In this document: positions 16,493 to 60,765 of the stretch, in pieces
Layout: each line of letters starts with the position of its first letter
Position numbering within the stretch: the stretch's first letter is position 1
NCBI GenBank assembly: GCA_003218475.1
Contig: QHNR01000106.1
Coordinates: 1,388-65,387 of the forward strand
Length of the DNA: 64,000 nucleotides
From: Verrucomicrobiota bacterium
Lineage (GTDB): Bacteria; Verrucomicrobiota; Verrucomicrobiia; Chthoniobacterales; UBA10450
Direction: 5' to 3'
Made by a program: the position numbers and the translations under genes
Notes under the pieces: generated by a model
Seen by the model: only the letters and a program-made list of their open reading frames with translations
What the model was told of the DNA's origin: nothing
The model's database searches: none

Positions 16493-16780
16493 ATGGCGCG
16501 TGATTACAACTTCTGGGTCTATATCATTACCAACAGGAACCATTCGGTTCTTTACATCGGGGTGACGAACCGCCTCTCTCGCCGGACTTATGAGCACCGC
16601 GAAGTTGCCAAGGTGGGGTTCGCTGCCAAATATCAGTGCAAAAACCTTATCTATTACGAACATTATCGCGACATCCGCGGCGCGATCGCTCGAGAATCGC
16701 AATTGAAGAAATGGTCGCGAGCGAAGAAAAATCGGCCTGATCAATCGATTGAACCCACGTTGGGAAGACCTTGGTGCTGA
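16493..16780 (+). CDS. GIY-YIG nuclease family protein (COG2827/UPF0213-like)
   Basis: FWVYIITNRNHSVLYIGVTNRLSRRTYEH...LIYYEHYRDIRGAIARESQLKKWSRAKK. Confidence 0.85.
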   Translation: MARDYNFWVYIITNRNHSVLYIGVTNRLSRRTYEHREVAKVGFAAKYQCKNLIYYEHYRDIRGAIARESQLKKWSRAKKNRPDQSIEPTLGRPWC

Positions 16781-16885: not shown

Positions 16886-16933
16886 TTACCCTGAGCGAGC
16901 GAAGCGAGTCGAATGGGCTACGCTCGAAATGAC
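16886..16933. repeat. inverted copy of the hairpin repeat (right flank of GIY-YIG cassette 1)
   Basis: accctgagcgagcgaagcgagtcgaatgggctacgctcgaaatgac. The reverse complement begins gtcatttcgagcgtagc. Confidence 0.75.
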
Positions 16934-17020
16934 AGAACGCCCGATTGGAATGGAAACGCGTATTGCGCCCGCGAGAAGCTGCCGAACACGACACGCCTGA
17001 TTTTTATGCCTGAGCCTTGC

Positions 17021-48854: not shown

Positions 48855-49979
48855 TCACGCGATCTTTTTCCGGAACTGCAGCGCGCAGAGAATGAACAGC
48901 AGGTTGGACATCACAATGAGTACGGCAAGATTTGGCCAGTATTCGAAAAAATTTGCGCCACGCAGGATGATTGCCCGCATCAGCGCGATGAAATAAGTCG
49001 TGGGGAAGAGCGCACCGAGCGCGTAAAAGATCCACGGCATGGTTTCTCTGGGAAAAATAAAACCGGAAAAGAAAACGCTCGGCAACAAAAACACCATCGA
49101 CATTTGGAGCGCCTGCATTTGGTTTTCGGCCTTGGTCCCAACGAGCAAACCCAGGCTAAGCAACGCAAACACATACACGAGTGTCGAAAACATCATCGCG
49201 AACACACTGCCGACAATTGGGACGAAAAAAACGAACCGCATGATCGTGAACAAAACCAGCGCCATCGCCATACCGATGCACAAATATGGAACCAGCTTGC
49301 CGAGCATCAGGCCTGCGCGGCTCAACGGGCTTACCAGTAGTTGCTCGAGCGTGCCGCGTTCGCGTTCGCGCACCAGGGCCATGGCGGCAGCAACCGTCGT
49401 CCCGATTTGCAAGACGACTCCAATCACGCCCGGCACAAAAAAGTTCGGGGCGCGCATTGCCGGGTTGTAAAGCATTTGAGGACGGACATCGATCGGCATC
49501 CCCTGCCGTCCGGTCTCACGCAAAAGCGATTCCAGTGATTGCGTCAGCGCCACGCCCAGTCCGGTCTGAAGAGCCTGCAAGGCGGTAGTGGAATTGGATC
49601 CGTCGACAAGCAATTGCACCTGCGCGGAGTGCCCCGCCATCAGTTCGCGAGTGAAGTTTGGCGGGATATCGAGCGCGGCGTAGGCGCGGCCTTTGCGCAT
49701 TTCGCTCTTCAGCTGCTCTAAATTTTGCACTTCGCCCACTACACGAAAACTCTCCGTGTTCACAAAACGGTCGATCAACTGACGGCTCTCGACGGTGCGA
49801 TCCTCGTTCAAAACGAGCATCGCCATGTGTTTCACGTCGTTATCGAGCGCGTAGCCGAATGCAATCATCTCGATCAGCGGCGGGAAAAAAAAGAAAAAGA
49901 GAGTCAACGGATCGCGCCAGACTACGATGAACTCCTTAAAGAGAATTGCACCGAGCCCGCGAAAAAGTTTGTGTTTCAT
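48855..49979 (-). CDS. ABC-2-type transporter permease (YbhS/YbhR-like)
   Basis: 374 aa. N-terminal cytoplasmic segment, one TM, a large loop, then 5 C-terminal TM segments. Last gene of the TetR-HlyD-ABC operon. Confidence 0.85.
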   Translation of the reverse strand: MKHKLFRGLGAILFKEFIVVWRDPLTLFFFFFPPLIEMIAFGYALDNDVKHMAMLVLNEDRTVESRQLIDRFVNTESFRVVGEVQNLEQLKSEMRKGRAYAALDIPPNFTRELMAGHSAQVQLLVDGSNSTTALQALQTGLGVALTQSLESLLRETGRQGMPIDVRPQMLYNPAMRAPNFFVPGVIGVVLQIGTTVAAAMALVRERERGTLEQLLVSPLSRAGLMLGKLVPYLCIGMAMALVLFTIMRFVFFVPIVGSVFAMMFSTLVYVFALLSLGLLVGTKAENQMQALQMSMVFLLPSVFFSGFIFPRETMPWIFYALGALFPTTYFIALMRAIILRGANFFEYWPNLAVLIVMSNLLFILCALQFRKKIA

Positions 49980-49988
49980 GTTTCCGCG

Positions 49989-50131
49989 GTCATCCCAAGC
50001 GAAGCGAGGGACCTCTCATAGGCATACAAAAGCTTCAAACTACCATTGATCATCTTCGCCTCGTCGATCTTCAACTGATTGCAGTAAACGCGGATTCCAA
50101 ATGTGCGATCCTTCGCTCCGCTCAGGATGAC
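49989..50131. repeat. 143-bp IR-bounded element, copy A
   Basis: Starts 10 nt upstream (operon sense) of the permease ATG. Confidence 0.85.
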
Positions 50132-50172
50132 AGCATGGCCCCGCGAAAAGGTTGTCGTTTCATTTTAAGTGG

Positions 50173-50493
50173 TCATCCCGAGCGAAGCGAGGGACCTCTC
50201 ATATGTTGAAAAAGCATCGGCGATAAATCCGCCCACTTCGGGTTCATCCTCTCGACTAATGCATTCTTCTTTTCGCGGCGCCATCCCTTGATCTCCTTTT
50301 CCCGCGCGATTGCGTCCCGAGGATCACTGAAACGTTCGTAGTAGAAGAGTCGATTAACTTTGTAGGTCTTAGTAAAACTTTCTATTTCGCTCTTCTGATG
50401 CTGCCAGACTCGTCGCATCAAGCTGTTTGTAATGCCTGTATAGAGAACCACTCGGCTGCGATTGGTCATCATGTAGACATAGAATGCTTTCAT
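50173..50493 (-). CDS. GIY-YIG nuclease family protein (COG2827/UPF0213-like)
   Basis: FYVYMMTNRSRVVLYTGITNSLMRRVWQH...LFYYERFSDPRDAIAREKEIKGWRREKK. The C-terminal codons (MRGPSLRSG) are encoded by a hairpin half-repeat. Confidence 0.85.
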   Translation of the reverse strand: MKAFYVYMMTNRSRVVLYTGITNSLMRRVWQHQKSEIESFTKTYKVNRLFYYERFSDPRDAIAREKEIKGWRREKKNALVERMNPKWADLSPMLFQHMRGPSLRSG

Positions 50494-50522
50494 CAGTTGG
50501 CGGGGCCTCGCTTCGCTACTCT

Positions 50523-50665
50523 GTCATCCCGAGCGAAGCGAGGGATCCCTCATCGGTCGGCAATATTTTCAAATTACGCTGGATTATCTTCGCTTCGTTG
50601 ATCTTCAACCGATCGCGGTAAACCCGCATTCCAACTGTCAGGTCCTTCGCTTCGCTTAGGATGAC
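50523..50665. repeat. 143-bp IR-bounded element, copy B
   Basis: Ends 10 nt from the ATPase stop codon (50676-50678). Confidence 0.85.
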
Positions 50666-50675
50666 ATTCATCACA

Positions 50676-51635
50676 TCATGCGGCTCTTTGTTGTTCGCCA
50701 GCGTGCTTCGCTGAAAGCTCAACAAACACGTCTTCGAGCGAAGGACCTATTTCGTGAATCTCTACATGACTGATGCCGACCTTGCGCAGTTGTTCCTCGA
50801 TCTGCGCGCGCTTCACGGTTTCATCAACCAGCAAATGCATCGATTGACCGAAGACTGTGGCGCTGCGAACGCCACGCATTTGGTGCATGGCTTGCAGCGC
50901 TGTGGTCACGTGATCGCACGTCACGTCGAGTCGGCGCGTTCCCGGCGGATTTACCCCTGGCAGTTTTTTTAACTCGTCCGGCTCGCCGCATACGATCAAC
51001 TTGGACATGTAAATGTAGCCGACGTGATCGCACCGCTCCGCTTCATCCATATAATGAGTCGTGACGAACAGGGTCATGCCTTTCCCAGCAAATTCGAAGA
51101 GCAAATCCCAGAGTTCACGCCGCGCGACCGGATCGATGCCCGCCGTCGGCTCATCGAGAAAAAGCACGGTGGGTTTGTGCATGAGCGAGCACGCCATCGC
51201 CAGACGTTGACGCCAGCCGCCGGAAAGTTGCGCAGCACGCCTGTCGATGTACGGCTGAAGATGCGTTGTGGCGATCATTTCGTCCCGCCGCTGGTTCAAT
51301 TCGCGACCGCTCAGGCCATAAAGTTTTCCTGCAAAGATGAGGTTCTCATTCACGGTCAACTCGTCGTACAGCGAAAATTTCTGCGACATATAGCCAATCA
51401 TTTCCTTGATAGGCTCCAGATCGCGCACAATGTCGTGGCCGCCGATTCCCGCCGTCCCCTGCGTTGGCTCCAGAATCCCGCACAACATCCGGATCACAGT
51501 TGTTTTCCCGGAGCCGTTCGGGCCGAGAAAGCCGAAGATAGAGCCTTTCCCGACGGAGAACGAAACGTGATCAACTGCTGTGAATGTACCGAAACGCTTC
51601 GTCAGCCCTTCAACTTCGATCATTGCTTCAGCCAT
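50676..51635 (-). CDS. ABC transporter ATP-binding protein (YbhF-like, single NBD)
   Basis: GPNGSGKTT, LSGGWRQRL, LFLDEPTAGID. Confidence 0.9.
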   Translation of the reverse strand: MAEAMIEVEGLTKRFGTFTAVDHVSFSVGKGSIFGFLGPNGSGKTTVIRMLCGILEPTQGTAGIGGHDIVRDLEPIKEMIGYMSQKFSLYDELTVNENLIFAGKLYGLSGRELNQRRDEMIATTHLQPYIDRRAAQLSGGWRQRLAMACSLMHKPTVLFLDEPTAGIDPVARRELWDLLFEFAGKGMTLFVTTHYMDEAERCDHVGYIYMSKLIVCGEPDELKKLPGVNPPGTRRLDVTCDHVTTALQAMHQMRGVRSATVFGQSMHLLVDETVKRAQIEEQLRKVGISHVEIHEIGPSLEDVFVELSAKHAGEQQRAA

Positions 51636-51748: not shown

Positions 51749-52624
51749 TCATTTCACGTTGGGAAAATAAACATCTGCGGCCATTCCGGCACGCAGACGA
51801 TCATTGTCGCTGGGCAACCGAACCTTCACCCCAAACACCTGTTTGATCCGGTCCGCGACAGTTTGCACGTTGCGCGGCGTAAACTCGGCTTGCCGATTTA
51901 TCTGCTCGACGACGCCATCGAAATCCGTGTGCGGAAACGAATCGACACGGACGCGCACGTGCTCGCCCAGTTTGATCAAACCCAGCCAGGATTCCGGCAC
52001 GTAAACACGCACCCAGAGATGGCCGGTCAAAAGCAGCGTGGCAGCCTCACGATTTGGAGGCAGCACATCGCCGACCTTGACACTGAGCACCTCCAGAATG
52101 GAATCGGCCGGTGCGATGACCTGCATTTCCGCTAACTGCGCGTCGATGTCGGCTAGTTGCGCACGCGCCTGCGCGACACGCGTTTTCGCCGCCTCGACAT
52201 TTTTCTCCTGCGATTTCGCCGCGCTGTCAGCCCGCTCGGCATCAGTAGGCGAAACTACCTTGCGCTTAAGCAGCTCCTGCTGACGCCTTGCATCGTCGCG
52301 AAGAAATTGCAACTGCGCTTCCTGCGCATCCGCGTCATGGATTGCCGTATTGATTTGCGCGGCGGCAAGATCACGACGCGCGTGCAGTTCTGACGCATCC
52401 AGTTGCACGATCACTTGGCCTTCGTGCAAACGATCGCCTTCCCACGCGAGAATTTTCTCGACACGTCCACCCGCGCGTGGACCGACGTGCGCTTCGTCCA
52501 CTTCGATCGTTCCCGAGACTGCGTTCTTCCGACTATTGCACCCGCAAAGAAAGATCGACACCGCGAGCGCGGCGAAAGTCCAAAGCGTCTGATTTCGGAC
52601 GAACGATTTTCTCATCAGTCGCAT
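51749..52624 (-). CDS. HlyD-family periplasmic adaptor (YbhG-like)
   Basis: Signal/lipobox-like SIFLCGCN, GTIEVDEAHV, a coiled-coil region, GMAADVYF. The ORF is listed from a TTG at 52648, with the first ATG at 52624. Confidence 0.8.
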   Translation of the reverse strand: MRLMRKSFVRNQTLWTFAALAVSIFLCGCNSRKNAVSGTIEVDEAHVGPRAGGRVEKILAWEGDRLHEGQVIVQLDASELHARRDLAAAQINTAIHDADAQEAQLQFLRDDARRQQELLKRKVVSPTDAERADSAAKSQEKNVEAAKTRVAQARAQLADIDAQLAEMQVIAPADSILEVLSVKVGDVLPPNREAATLLLTGHLWVRVYVPESWLGLIKLGEHVRVRVDSFPHTDFDGVVEQINRQAEFTPRNVQTVADRIKQVFGVKVRLPSDNDRLRAGMAADVYFPNVK

Positions 52625-52644
52625 TGGAGCAGCCAGAGATTCGA

Positions 52645-53286
52645 TCAACCGATGGTGCGGCCCCGTCGGGTCAGCGCGCCTTCGAGGATAATTTTGAGAA
52701 TTCCAGCGAACCCCTCTTTCGGCGTCATTCCTAACTCCTCCATCTTCAATGGATTCATGATTGCCTGAACGATGGCGAGCAGAATCTCGATCGTGAGCTT
52801 GGCCGGAACGTCTTTGCGCACCATTCCCGAGCGTTGACCCTCAATGAAAAGTTTTCCGAAGAAACGCTCGATCAAAGCAGCGCGTCGACGTTCGATAACT
52901 TTGAACACGTGCGGCGCTTTCTGTCGCATGTCGCGAACGAACGGTGGCTTAATCTCATCCAATTCGCGTTGCATGTTGGCCAGCAGTTCCTGTAGCGCCG
53001 TCGAGAAATCATGCGGATGTTCATGCGGATGTGCATGTATGATTCCGTTCAGTTTCGCTTCGACGCCGGCGAACTTGTCGGCCAGCACCGCCTCGAGTAG
53101 TTCGATTTTGCCTGGGAAATGGGCATACAGTGTCTTCTTGCTGATTCCCAACTCCTCCGCGAGCTCATCCATCGTCACGCTGCGGAATCCGTGGCAGAAG
53201 AAGTGCGCACGTGCCGCTTCCACAATTCGTTGCTGGCTGAACTCGTTCTTTCGATTGCGCGGCGGCGCTTTCTTTGGGGGTTTCAC
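52645..53286 (-). CDS. TetR/AcrR-family transcriptional regulator
   Basis: RIVEAARAHFFCHGFRSVTMDELAEELGISKKTLYAHFPGK. A GTG at 53286 forms a GTGA overlap with the upstream gene's stop and gives a typical ~213-aa TetR. The longer listed ORF (to 53394) overlaps that upstream gene. Confidence 0.8.
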   Translation of the reverse strand: MKPPKKAPPRNRKNEFSQQRIVEAARAHFFCHGFRSVTMDELAEELGISKKTLYAHFPGKIELLEAVLADKFAGVEAKLNGIIHAHPHEHPHDFSTALQELLANMQRELDEIKPPFVRDMRQKAPHVFKVIERRRAALIERFFGKLFIEGQRSGMVRKDVPAKLTIEILLAIVQAIMNPLKMEELGMTPKEGFAGILKIILEGALTRRGRTIG

Positions 53287-53774
53287 GTCAATGTTGTCCT
53301 GTTGCCGATCGCGTAATAGGTGTCGAGGGCCTTGAATGAAAAGAGAACGCCGATGAATCCAAGCAACGAGCGGAGCCAGTTCATGTGACTCCATTCGGCG
53401 ACCGCACCTCGAATTTGGTCGACGTGATCAGGAATTGACCACGTAAAGAGGATCAGATCGCGGTGAACGAAATAGGCAAGCGTCAGGACGACGATTGCCG
53501 TGTACATCAAAAACGAAATCGCAAAGTAAACGCGAAGCGAGACAGCGTCCGTCCAGAAGAAAATGATCGCCAGGACGATTAGAATCTCATTAACCGGTCC
53601 GACGATTACATAGAAGCGTCGTGGATCGACATGCTGAAAGTAATCTCTCGCACTCTGGATCGAAGCCGGAATGTCAGAACCCCAGCTTTGCGCATCGACG
53701 ATCGTGTTATAGATGCTGAACATTGTCAGCCCGGATGCGCAAATGATCGAGAGGAACACAATTATTTTCTTCAT
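53283..53774 (-). CDS. 4-TM membrane protein, DUF1772-like
   Basis: 163 aa with four hydrophobic segments. The family call is from general resemblance only. Confidence 0.45.
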   Translation of the reverse strand: MKKIIVFLSIICASGLTMFSIYNTIVDAQSWGSDIPASIQSARDYFQHVDPRRFYVIVGPVNEILIVLAIIFFWTDAVSLRVYFAISFLMYTAIVVLTLAYFVHRDLILFTWSIPDHVDQIRGAVAEWSHMNWLRSLLGFIGVLFSFKALDTYYAIGNRTTLT

Positions 53775-60563: not shown

Positions 60564-60644
60564 AGAAGGAATTCAACGTCCAATACCCCACTCGCCTTCG
60601 CAACGCTTCCGCGCATCCAACCGCCCAACTGTCAACGCCCAATT

Positions 60645-60715
60645 GTCATTCCGAGCGAAGGCGAGGAATCTCTCGAAGTTAAATCCAGAGATGTCTCGAC
60701 TTCGCTCGACATGAC
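60645..60715. repeat. solo 71-bp hairpin of the GTCAT-CGAGCG family (no nuclease gene)
   Basis: gtcattccgagcgaaggcgaggaatctc ... gagatgtctcgacttcgctcgacatgac. Lies between the divergent rlmI-like gene and purC. Confidence 0.85.
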
Positions 60716-60765
60716 AAAACAGTAAGCGAGTTGAAAATTGGGCGCTAAACGTTCAGCATTTGCTC

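Follow-up and report, generated by a model that had tools for sequence, protein, structure and literature searches.

The 64-kb stretch of verrucomicrobial DNA analysed here (the window) carries an efflux operon of the ABC type whose ATPase and permease genes are separated by a spacer of 696 nt (49980-50675), from the ATPase stop at 50676 to the permease ATG at 49979; this length, already given by the first-pass annotation of the same DNA, agrees with the sequence. We consider it very likely that this spacer is an Ssn/SRM cassette, i.e. the gene of a GIY-YIG single-stranded DNA nuclease bracketed by its own target repeats and accompanied by two repeat doublets (elements A and B), which settled at a formerly overlapping gene junction. 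Rather than a new kind of element, it is a member of a family published in 2025. Read along the minus strand, its parts follow in the order left flank, element A, a crippled repeat, the GIY-YIG open reading frame (ORF), the right repeat, an orphan ATG segment, element B and right flank (Table 1). The first-pass annotation had accurately described a spacer filled by A, a half repeat, the GIY-YIG gene, a half repeat and B; it had recognised the parts of the cassette but not the published Ssn/SRM system (PMC11893778). New here are the location of the cassette inside an operon, the purifying selection on its gene together with a broad co-divergence with the flanks, its patchy presence on the host tree and an orphan permease start beside element B.

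The Ssn family was defined by Chenal et al. (Nat Commun 2025; PMC11893778) as single-domain GIY-YIG proteins (CDD cd10448) that bind a hairpin repeat solely as single-stranded DNA and cleave a few nucleotides 5' of it, on one strand only, being inactive on duplex DNA or RNA. The general name of the repeat is SRM and its Neisseria version, CGTCATTCCCGCGMAVGCGGGAATCYRG, is called NTS; at least one SRM is found near 71% of Ssn homologues, and 42% have SRM on both sides (PMC11893778). Mutation of Y6, Y17 and E64 abolished cleavage by SsnA, which in N. meningitidis lowers transformation by repeat-carrying DNA (PMC11893778). The same authors likened NTS-ssnA-NTS to an insertion sequence and drew the analogy with repetitive extragenic palindromic sequences and their associated tyrosine transposases (REP/RAYT) (PMC11893778). 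Our literature search on GIY-YIG proteins with repeats, with miniature inverted-repeat transposable elements (MITEs) or with COG2827, and on the repeat sequence itself, found nothing apart from this paper, nor any follow-up to it.

The ssn gene of the window encodes a protein of 106 aa whose sole Pfam domain is PF01541 (residues 4-76, E=1.9e-14), consistent with the single-domain architecture of ~90-110 aa of the Ssn family. Compared by BLASTP with the 94-aa N. gonorrhoeae SsnA orthologue, read from the Neisseria locus L111 (L numbers designate the loci that were compared), it is 39% identical over 85 aa (E=7e-21), and its residues Y7, Y18 and E65 align ungapped with the catalytic Y6, Y17 and E64 of SsnA. 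A tblastn search in a 7.3-Gb database also gave a match to Neisseria (E=6e-12), and both values lie below the limit of 1e-10 used for SsnA homology (PMC11893778). Inverted hairpin repeats are present on both sides of the gene, as in SRM-flanked homologues; the right one is intact in the window, and the left one is crippled there and intact in L020. The protein had no match in NCBIfam and in the defence-system libraries, its closest match among solved structures is the UPF0213 protein 1ZG2 (E=0.005), and its family comprises 12,051 cluster representatives at E<=1e-3.

The repeats of the window follow a common design (GTCAT + TCCY + GA + GCGAAGC + GA + RGGA), in which TCCY and RGGA form the stem, a GA/AG mismatch pair follows and GCGAAGC constitutes the core. 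A 23-nt pattern of this repeat has five matches in the window, all of them within the spacer, versus none in 100 shuffles. Across 46 distinct copies of the repeat, pairing holds in 95.7% of cells and both-sided changes occur in four of the six pairs of the hairpin; none of 500 shuffles reached the observed covariation score, although the interrelatedness of the sequences weakens this control. Compared by eye with its intact counterpart in L020 (2967-2993; L019 was also compared), the crippled left repeat lacks 7 nt (CATGCTG). The right repeat supplies the last eight codons of the ssn ORF (GPSLRSG) as well as its stop codon, and the C-terminal tails of homologues vary according to whichever repeat comes next. 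Indeed, a repeat-derived peptide, in any of three frames, is present in the C-terminal tail of 43 of 132 diverse cluster representatives versus 0.7% of shuffled tails (tails that translate the right repeat end, for example, in ...GPSLRSG, ...LGMT or ...AQDD). The use of any of the three frames indicates that the repeat is a DNA-level feature which accompanies GIY-YIG genes across the family. Inspection of the homologues from Planktothrix, Spirosoma and Novosphingobium revealed inverted palindromic repeats on their flanks, starting with GTCAT, GTCAT and GTCG, respectively; the Planktothrix and Spirosoma genes are also placed between co-oriented genes.

Elements A and B are 144 nt long each, 80% identical to one another, with inverted ends of 24-26 nt, and they have ends of ~35 nt in common with the gene unit. 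Element A, whose repeats lie at ~50665-50641 (left) and 50545-50523 (right), adopts a long hairpin fold (-61 kcal/mol, z=-6.3) and resembles a REPIN or a MITE; the fold of element B reaches -59 kcal/mol (z=-4.4). Copies of element A occupy the corresponding place in 17 related loci (70-88% identity). Among the loci compared, element B is confined to the window lineage and L017/L018, and is 78-83% identical to the A copies of most other lineages (74% in L093). One stop-free reading frame of the minus strand spans all of A (50523-50666) and all of B (49989-50132), and gene callers in public assemblies predict an ORF of 51-52 aa on A (L002, L003, L005). We rejected a coding role for both elements: there is no sign of a conserved peptide, 17 of 48 residues differing between them in a manual count. 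The idea that A and B are internal-deletion derivatives of the ssn gene was likewise discarded, as it received marginal support only (z=0.3-3.8 versus shuffled interiors). An Rfam scan of the spacer (E<=1) detected no known RNA family, the only match being a chance snoRNA-like one.

Between the ssn unit and element B, the orphan ATG segment is a diverged copy of the 25 nt with which the permease gene begins (50139-50163 versus 49955-49979); its ATG opens an ORF of 13 codons that ends inside the left repeat of element B. It forms part of a direct-repeat family (D2) of 58 nt (49963-50020 versus 50146-50203, 81% identity) which spans the right repeat and the orphan permease start. This orphan start is common to the window and L017; the copies differ at 6 of 27 positions, and so do their linkers. 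The 58-nt repeat is too diverged to be a fresh target duplication and is shared with L017, which rules out that explanation; our best guess is that the orphan start arose by recombination between two diverged alleles at right repeats.

A permease scan of species-representative genomes provided 80 loci, mostly labelled Candidatus Udaeobacter, Chthoniobacterales or Verrucomicrobia, with a few other bin labels. The order TetR-HlyD-ATPase-permease-M28 peptidase is kept in most of them, and these loci were therefore considered as orthologous operons. The ATPase end and the permease start were located, and the spacers compared, in 74 loci. At 22 of these the stop overlaps the start (TGATG or TAATG), which is the empty site that the first-pass annotation had expected in orthologous operons, and two more, with a 2-nt spacer, are effectively empty. 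The GIY-YIG gene is present in 20 loci, in nested forms, and the remaining 30 contain footprints or unrelated small elements. The nested forms are the repeat-gene-repeat unit alone (spacer of 379-384 nt; L020, with 379 nt, is minimal), that unit extended in its 3' part (455-464 nt), the gene together with element A (515-519 nt), this combination with one further element (597-603 nt) and the 696-nt form, which is restricted to the window and L017. The footprints include solo repeats, either left (L029, L084, L085, L092, L094, L095, L099, L101) or right (L031, L048, L065), and a TGAC stub followed by the right flank (L068, L079); in L105 both repeats are intact but the gene between them has an internal deletion, and L056 has only a doublet. 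Unrelated small palindromic elements, of types such as GGGGAGCACAGGCTGCCAGCCTGT... and CCACAGATGAA..., occupy the same junction in L028, L033, L039 and L061 (~230 nt), in L034, L051 and L103 (~125-210 nt) and in L046, L062 and L081 (~106-150 nt). Their presence in other species indicates that the junction is a general sink, or landing site, that tolerates or attracts insertions of small elements.

The empty junction reads ...GCCGCGTGATGAAACACAAAC..., and its exact restoration in the window would read ...GCATGA joined to ATGAAACAC. In the window, the right flank CGCGGAAAC stands in place of the overlapping TGATG of empty alleles. The left flank ends in ATGA[ACT]T, a motif that recurs at this position in most occupied loci and could be a relic of an old TGATGAA junction. 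The outer repeat ends had been placed 10 nt from each neighbouring gene, which is exact on the left; the distance on the right is 9 nt. The proposal of a precise insertion between the two genes is borne out as far as insertion is concerned, but the spacer is not the product of a single event: it is a composite of at least three units accumulated over time. In the sequences compared, A was added in some lineages and B occurs only in the window lineage and L017. Target-site duplications, for which a search at the element ends had been recommended, were found neither around A or B nor around the gene unit, in the sequence or in the flank table across loci. An assembly chimera can be ruled out, given that the same gene order is found in independent assemblies (NCBI, ENA and JGI) from different soil samples: the ATPase protein was found on contigs of the three sources, and every contig shown has the GIY-YIG gene between ATPase and permease, including one from a curated metagenome-assembled genome labelled Verrucomicrobia bacterium (GCA_003218035.1). 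A relative at 94% nucleotide identity has an identical layout.

The four close homologues that were looked up (P0001, P0007, P0079 and P0038; 85-100% identity) are all encoded at this junction, with different upstream neighbours. The gene is intact in 17 of the 20 species copies; dN and dS average 0.081 and 1.44, respectively, in 136 pairwise comparisons, so that dN/dS (~0.057) denotes strong purifying selection. Nucleotide distances of the gene and of ATPase plus permease are correlated (Pearson 0.85, Spearman 0.76) and similar in size (0.233 versus 0.196); the gene has been largely inherited along with its flanks. An exception is provided by L040 and L041, whose ATPase and permease genes are 3.6% apart whereas their cassette genes are 16.9% apart, a discordance that points to cassette exchange between lineages. 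When the flanking genes are placed on a neighbour-joining tree, occupied alleles are intermingled with empty and footprint ones. Sliding windows revealed no differentiation between occupied and empty alleles anywhere (Fst-like values of 0.00-0.03, without a peak at the junction), and no co-conversion or haplotype association was found near the junction. Taken together, the interleaved states and the undifferentiated flanks imply that presence and absence of the cassette turn over fast relative to flank divergence. These data do not distinguish between recurrent loss, recurrent re-entry and the replacement of alleles through homologous recombination. The insertion is old, not recent. We suggest that the gene has been at the junction since before these Ca. 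Udaeobacter species diverged and has been kept by purifying selection, and that the cassette would have been repeatedly lost or exchanged, leaving footprints behind.

By extension from what has been demonstrated for its relatives, the cassette may operate as follows. In an exposed single strand, each repeat would fold into a small hairpin; the nuclease would bind this hairpin and nick that strand only, a few bases 5' of GTCAT, and would cut neither duplex DNA nor RNA. Single strands that enter or become exposed might thus be fragmented at the repeats, which would alter recombination around these, and the cutting may also underlie the spread and turnover of the repeats in a REP/RAYT-like manner.

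Several points weigh against assigning the cassette to the Ssn/SRM system with this mode of action. The published degenerate SRM pattern, HGTCWYN(0-2)YYVSBRHN(0-5)WNVSBRGN(0-2)RNCYNB, has no strict match in the window, L020, L108, L109 and L110, and has seven in the Neisseria locus; the window repeats are 1-2 mismatches away from it, a tolerance at which chance matches dominate. This pattern was built by hand from 29 genomes, and we read its failure as a limit of the search string and not of the family definition. Outside the junction few repeats were seen, ~12 in the 647 kb of Udaeobacter DNA that were sampled, and most of them belong to another subtype, so that a large dispersed population as in Neisseria is not shown, and doublets of the A/B type occur only at the ATPase-permease junction in the ~700 kb sampled. 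For strand and site specificity we extrapolate from relatives that are 39% identical, and the sequences analysed give no indication that Ca. Udaeobacter is naturally transformable. That the cassette is co-transcribed, or acts on the pump in any way (see below), is likewise deduced from sequence alone.

Other explanations of the same locus were weighed. A free-standing homing endonuclease gene similar to T4 seg, whose product would cut the duplex empty junction of relatives and whose cassette would be copied in by repair, would explain both the fixed site and the patchy distribution; it is nevertheless quite unlikely. All the close homologues that were looked up (four proteins, 20 species loci) reside at one junction, where occupied and exactly empty alleles alternate on the host tree with undifferentiated flanks; discordant pairs exist, such as L040-L041, and so do decayed copies (L038, L043, L069, L105), as a homing cycle predicts. 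The protein, however, is a bare catalytic domain for which Pfam found no second, sequence-specific DNA-binding domain, the characterised relatives are inactive on duplex DNA (PMC11893778), and in other phyla the members of the family have unrelated neighbourhoods and are accompanied in every case by repeats of their own. The strong correlation and similar size of gene and flank distances (r=0.85) also argue against frequent long-range transfer, and there is no co-conversion signal near the junction. Highly improbable, in our opinion, is an autonomous transposable element of a new mechanistic type, of which the repeat-gene-repeat unit and the doublets would excise precisely and reinsert as single strands, the GIY-YIG protein acting as an HUH transposase. 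Its architecture is that of an insertion sequence, as noted also by the Ssn authors (PMC11893778), the doublets share their ends with the gene unit, L105 represents an internally deleted derivative and the 22 exact TGATG or TAATG junctions are scattered among occupied relatives. Yet gene unit and doublets occupy a single chromosomal site in the ~700 kb sampled, where neither a target duplication nor a consistent target sequence was found, and the similarity between the interior of A/B and the gene unit is marginal (z=0.3-3.8). No covalent intermediate, as needed for strand transfer, is known for GIY-YIG nucleases. Moreover, homologous replacement by empty alleles accounts for the exact empty sites equally well.

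The interleaved exact empty sites, the undifferentiated flanks and the hairpin ends also leave some room for a reading that we hold to be unlikely, namely that of a repeat-gene-repeat unit still active as a site-specific mobile element, whose exact excision would restore TGATG and which would re-enter the same junction via single-stranded intermediates, with GIY-YIG replacing the HUH transposase of IS200/IS605. Extremely improbable is the domestication of the cassette as a regulator of the efflux operon, in which hairpins and small protein would tune ATPase:permease expression through mRNA processing, stabilisation or decoupling. It would agree with the strong purifying selection, the long residence at one site, the stability of the A and B RNA hairpins (-59 to -61 kcal/mol) and the position of the first repeat, which begins 10 nt past the ATPase stop; in E. 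coli, the closeness of REP elements to a stop codon is reported to affect expression of the upstream gene. On the other hand, 22 of the 74 species have overlapping genes and no cassette in the same operon, unrelated small elements lie at the junction in other species, the same family with its repeats is found beside unrelated genes in other phyla, and the characterised relatives do not bind RNA (PMC11893778).

The Ssn/SRM reading that we favour can be placed among known systems. With the published Ssn/NTS-SRM system (SsnA of N. meningitidis; PMC11893778), the window cassette has in common a single-domain GIY-YIG protein of ~100 aa, 39% identical and with the catalytic Y, Y and E kept, a gene bracketed by inverted copies of an oriented GTCAT + hairpin repeat, and extra inverted repeat doublets nearby, the same doublets being found in the Neisseria locus L111. 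It differs by its repeat (stem/loop of 4 bp, GA/AG mismatch pair and GCGAAGC mini-hairpin, unmatched by the published SRM pattern), by its location inside an operon between genes that overlap in relatives, and by its host, a free-living soil verrucomicrobium and not a symbiont or pathogen, in which few dispersed copies were seen. Judged from our comparison, the cassette would work like REP-RAYT without being a member of it. As in REP/REPIN-RAYT systems (REPtrons), the nuclease gene is single-copy, is transmitted vertically, evolves under purifying selection and has hairpin repeats of its own on its flanks, REPIN-like inverted doublets without coding content lie in intergenic DNA, and a short conserved tag precedes the hairpin on its 5' side (GTAG or CGTC in REPs, GTCAT here). 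Unlike them, the window enzyme has GIY-YIG as its only domain and is not an HUH/Y1 transposase of the IS200/IS605 type, no covalent tyrosine intermediate is known for it, nor has a large population of repeats in the genome been demonstrated. Free-standing GIY-YIG homing endonucleases (T4 Seg, I-TevI relatives) resemble it by their domain, their position between conserved co-oriented genes and their variable presence among relatives. The window protein, however, is devoid of a DNA-binding domain, its relatives cut only single-stranded DNA, and its gene has flanking inverted repeats, which homing endonuclease genes lack. Finally, A and B are short, non-coding and bounded by inverted ends folding into hairpins, as are MITEs and IS200/IS605-type elements, and L105 has a deletion derivative of the coding unit; contrary to those elements, they have no target-site duplication and no classical transposase, and the search of the ~700 kb sampled found A/B at one junction only, and not at multiple sites.

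The cassette is co-oriented with the operon, a search of the spacer revealed no sigma-70-like promoter and terminator-like matches are within chance (1 versus 1.3 expected), which makes co-transcription the simplest reading; the earlier statement that the insertion must be co-transcribed is retained in this weaker form. The cassette would be a co-transcribed passenger and not a pump component. The permease is intact and 97-99% identical to its orthologues in cassette-free operons. As previously annotated, the inserted DNA provides the sequence immediately upstream of the permease ATG. The insertion would break the original translational coupling of ATPase and permease (TGATG) and replace it by a 696-nt leader, with two very stable RNA hairpins (-59 to -61 kcal/mol) and a new, weak ribosome-binding context before the permease; with this arrangement, the pump transcript may plausibly be subject to polarity or RNA processing. 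Two other descriptions of the operon had to be amended: its remaining genes are not uniformly tightly spaced, the gap between HlyD and ATPase genes being 113 nt, and its likeness to E. coli ybhGFSR is loose only, with one ATPase and one permease.

Table 1. Features of the efflux operon and of the ATPase-permease spacer in the window
Feature	Position	Strand	Basis
TetR regulator gene	52645-53394	minus	Pfam
HlyD-type adaptor gene	51749-52648	minus	Pfam
ABC ATPase gene, upstream of the spacer	50676-51635	minus	PF00005, E=3e-34; ORF list; stop TGA 50678-50676
10-nt left flank TGTGATGAAT, between ATPase stop and first repeat	50666-50675	minus	sequence; flank table
Element A, 144-nt non-coding doublet of inverted Ssn-type hairpin repeats	50523-50666	minus	repeat family D1; inverted pair I4; pattern matches
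Crippled left repeat of the ssn unit, GT-AGCGAAGCGAGGCCCC	50502-50519	minus	inverted repeats I7, I8, I10
ssn gene, GIY-YIG ORF, 106 codons	50173-50493	minus	PF01541, E=1.9e-14
Right repeat of the ssn unit, GGTCCCTCGCTTCGCTCGGGATGAC	50172-50197	minus	pattern match; translation
Orphan ATG segment, diverged copy of the permease 5' end, ATGAAACGACAACCTTTTCGCGGGG	50139-50163	minus	direct-repeat family D2
Element B, second 144-nt repeat doublet, same family as A	49989-50132	minus	pattern matches; repeat families
9-nt right flank CGCGGAAAC, directly upstream of the permease ATG	49980-49988	minus	sequence; flank table; empty-site comparison
ABC-2 permease gene, downstream of the spacer, intact, 374 aa	48855-49979	minus	PF12698, E=2.9e-52

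Further genes and repeats of the same type were observed elsewhere. The window contains a second Ssn-type GIY-YIG gene (16493-16780, within the segment 16451-16934 of the plus strand), 44% identical to the first and with an apparently frameshifted C-terminus; a different repeat subtype, GTCATGTCGAGCGGAGTCGAGACATCTCT, lies 14 nt upstream of it and a degenerate inverted copy near 16905-16934. A minimal inverted doublet of 74 nt of this second subtype (GTCATTCCGAGCGAAGGCGAGGAATCTCT ... AGAGATGTCTCGACTTCGCTCGACATGAC), REPIN-like, sits at 60644-60717 between two long divergent ORFs (putative genes). Additional repeats or doublets were seen in or near the operon of L046 (2805), L101 (2830/2914) and L058 (1035/1105). 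On plasmid p1 of Planktothrix agardhii (L108, 17347-20616), an Ssn-type gene is located between an MmeI-type restriction-modification gene and DISARM drmA, on the same strand, with doublet arrays and partial copies of GTCATTCTGAGTGAAACGAAGAATCTC on both sides.

Ssn nucleases entered the literature as recently as 2025, and Neisseria is the one genus in which a role is known for them; the possibility that the repeat-gene-repeat unit is a domesticated mobile element was put forward by Chenal et al., who were unable to test it. At one chromosomal site of one of the most abundant soil bacteria, empty, minimal, expanded, decayed and footprint alleles constitute a natural comparative series, and since purifying selection is strong throughout, the question of whether such a unit is selfish, domesticated or both, as well as its effect on local recombination, becomes testable with existing metagenomes. 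The new repeat variant, organised around the very stable GCGAAGC mini-hairpin, is missed by the published search pattern, so that repeats of the Ssn family are probably under-counted. For the efflux pump, the locus offers a natural experiment in breaking the translational coupling between ATPase and permease.

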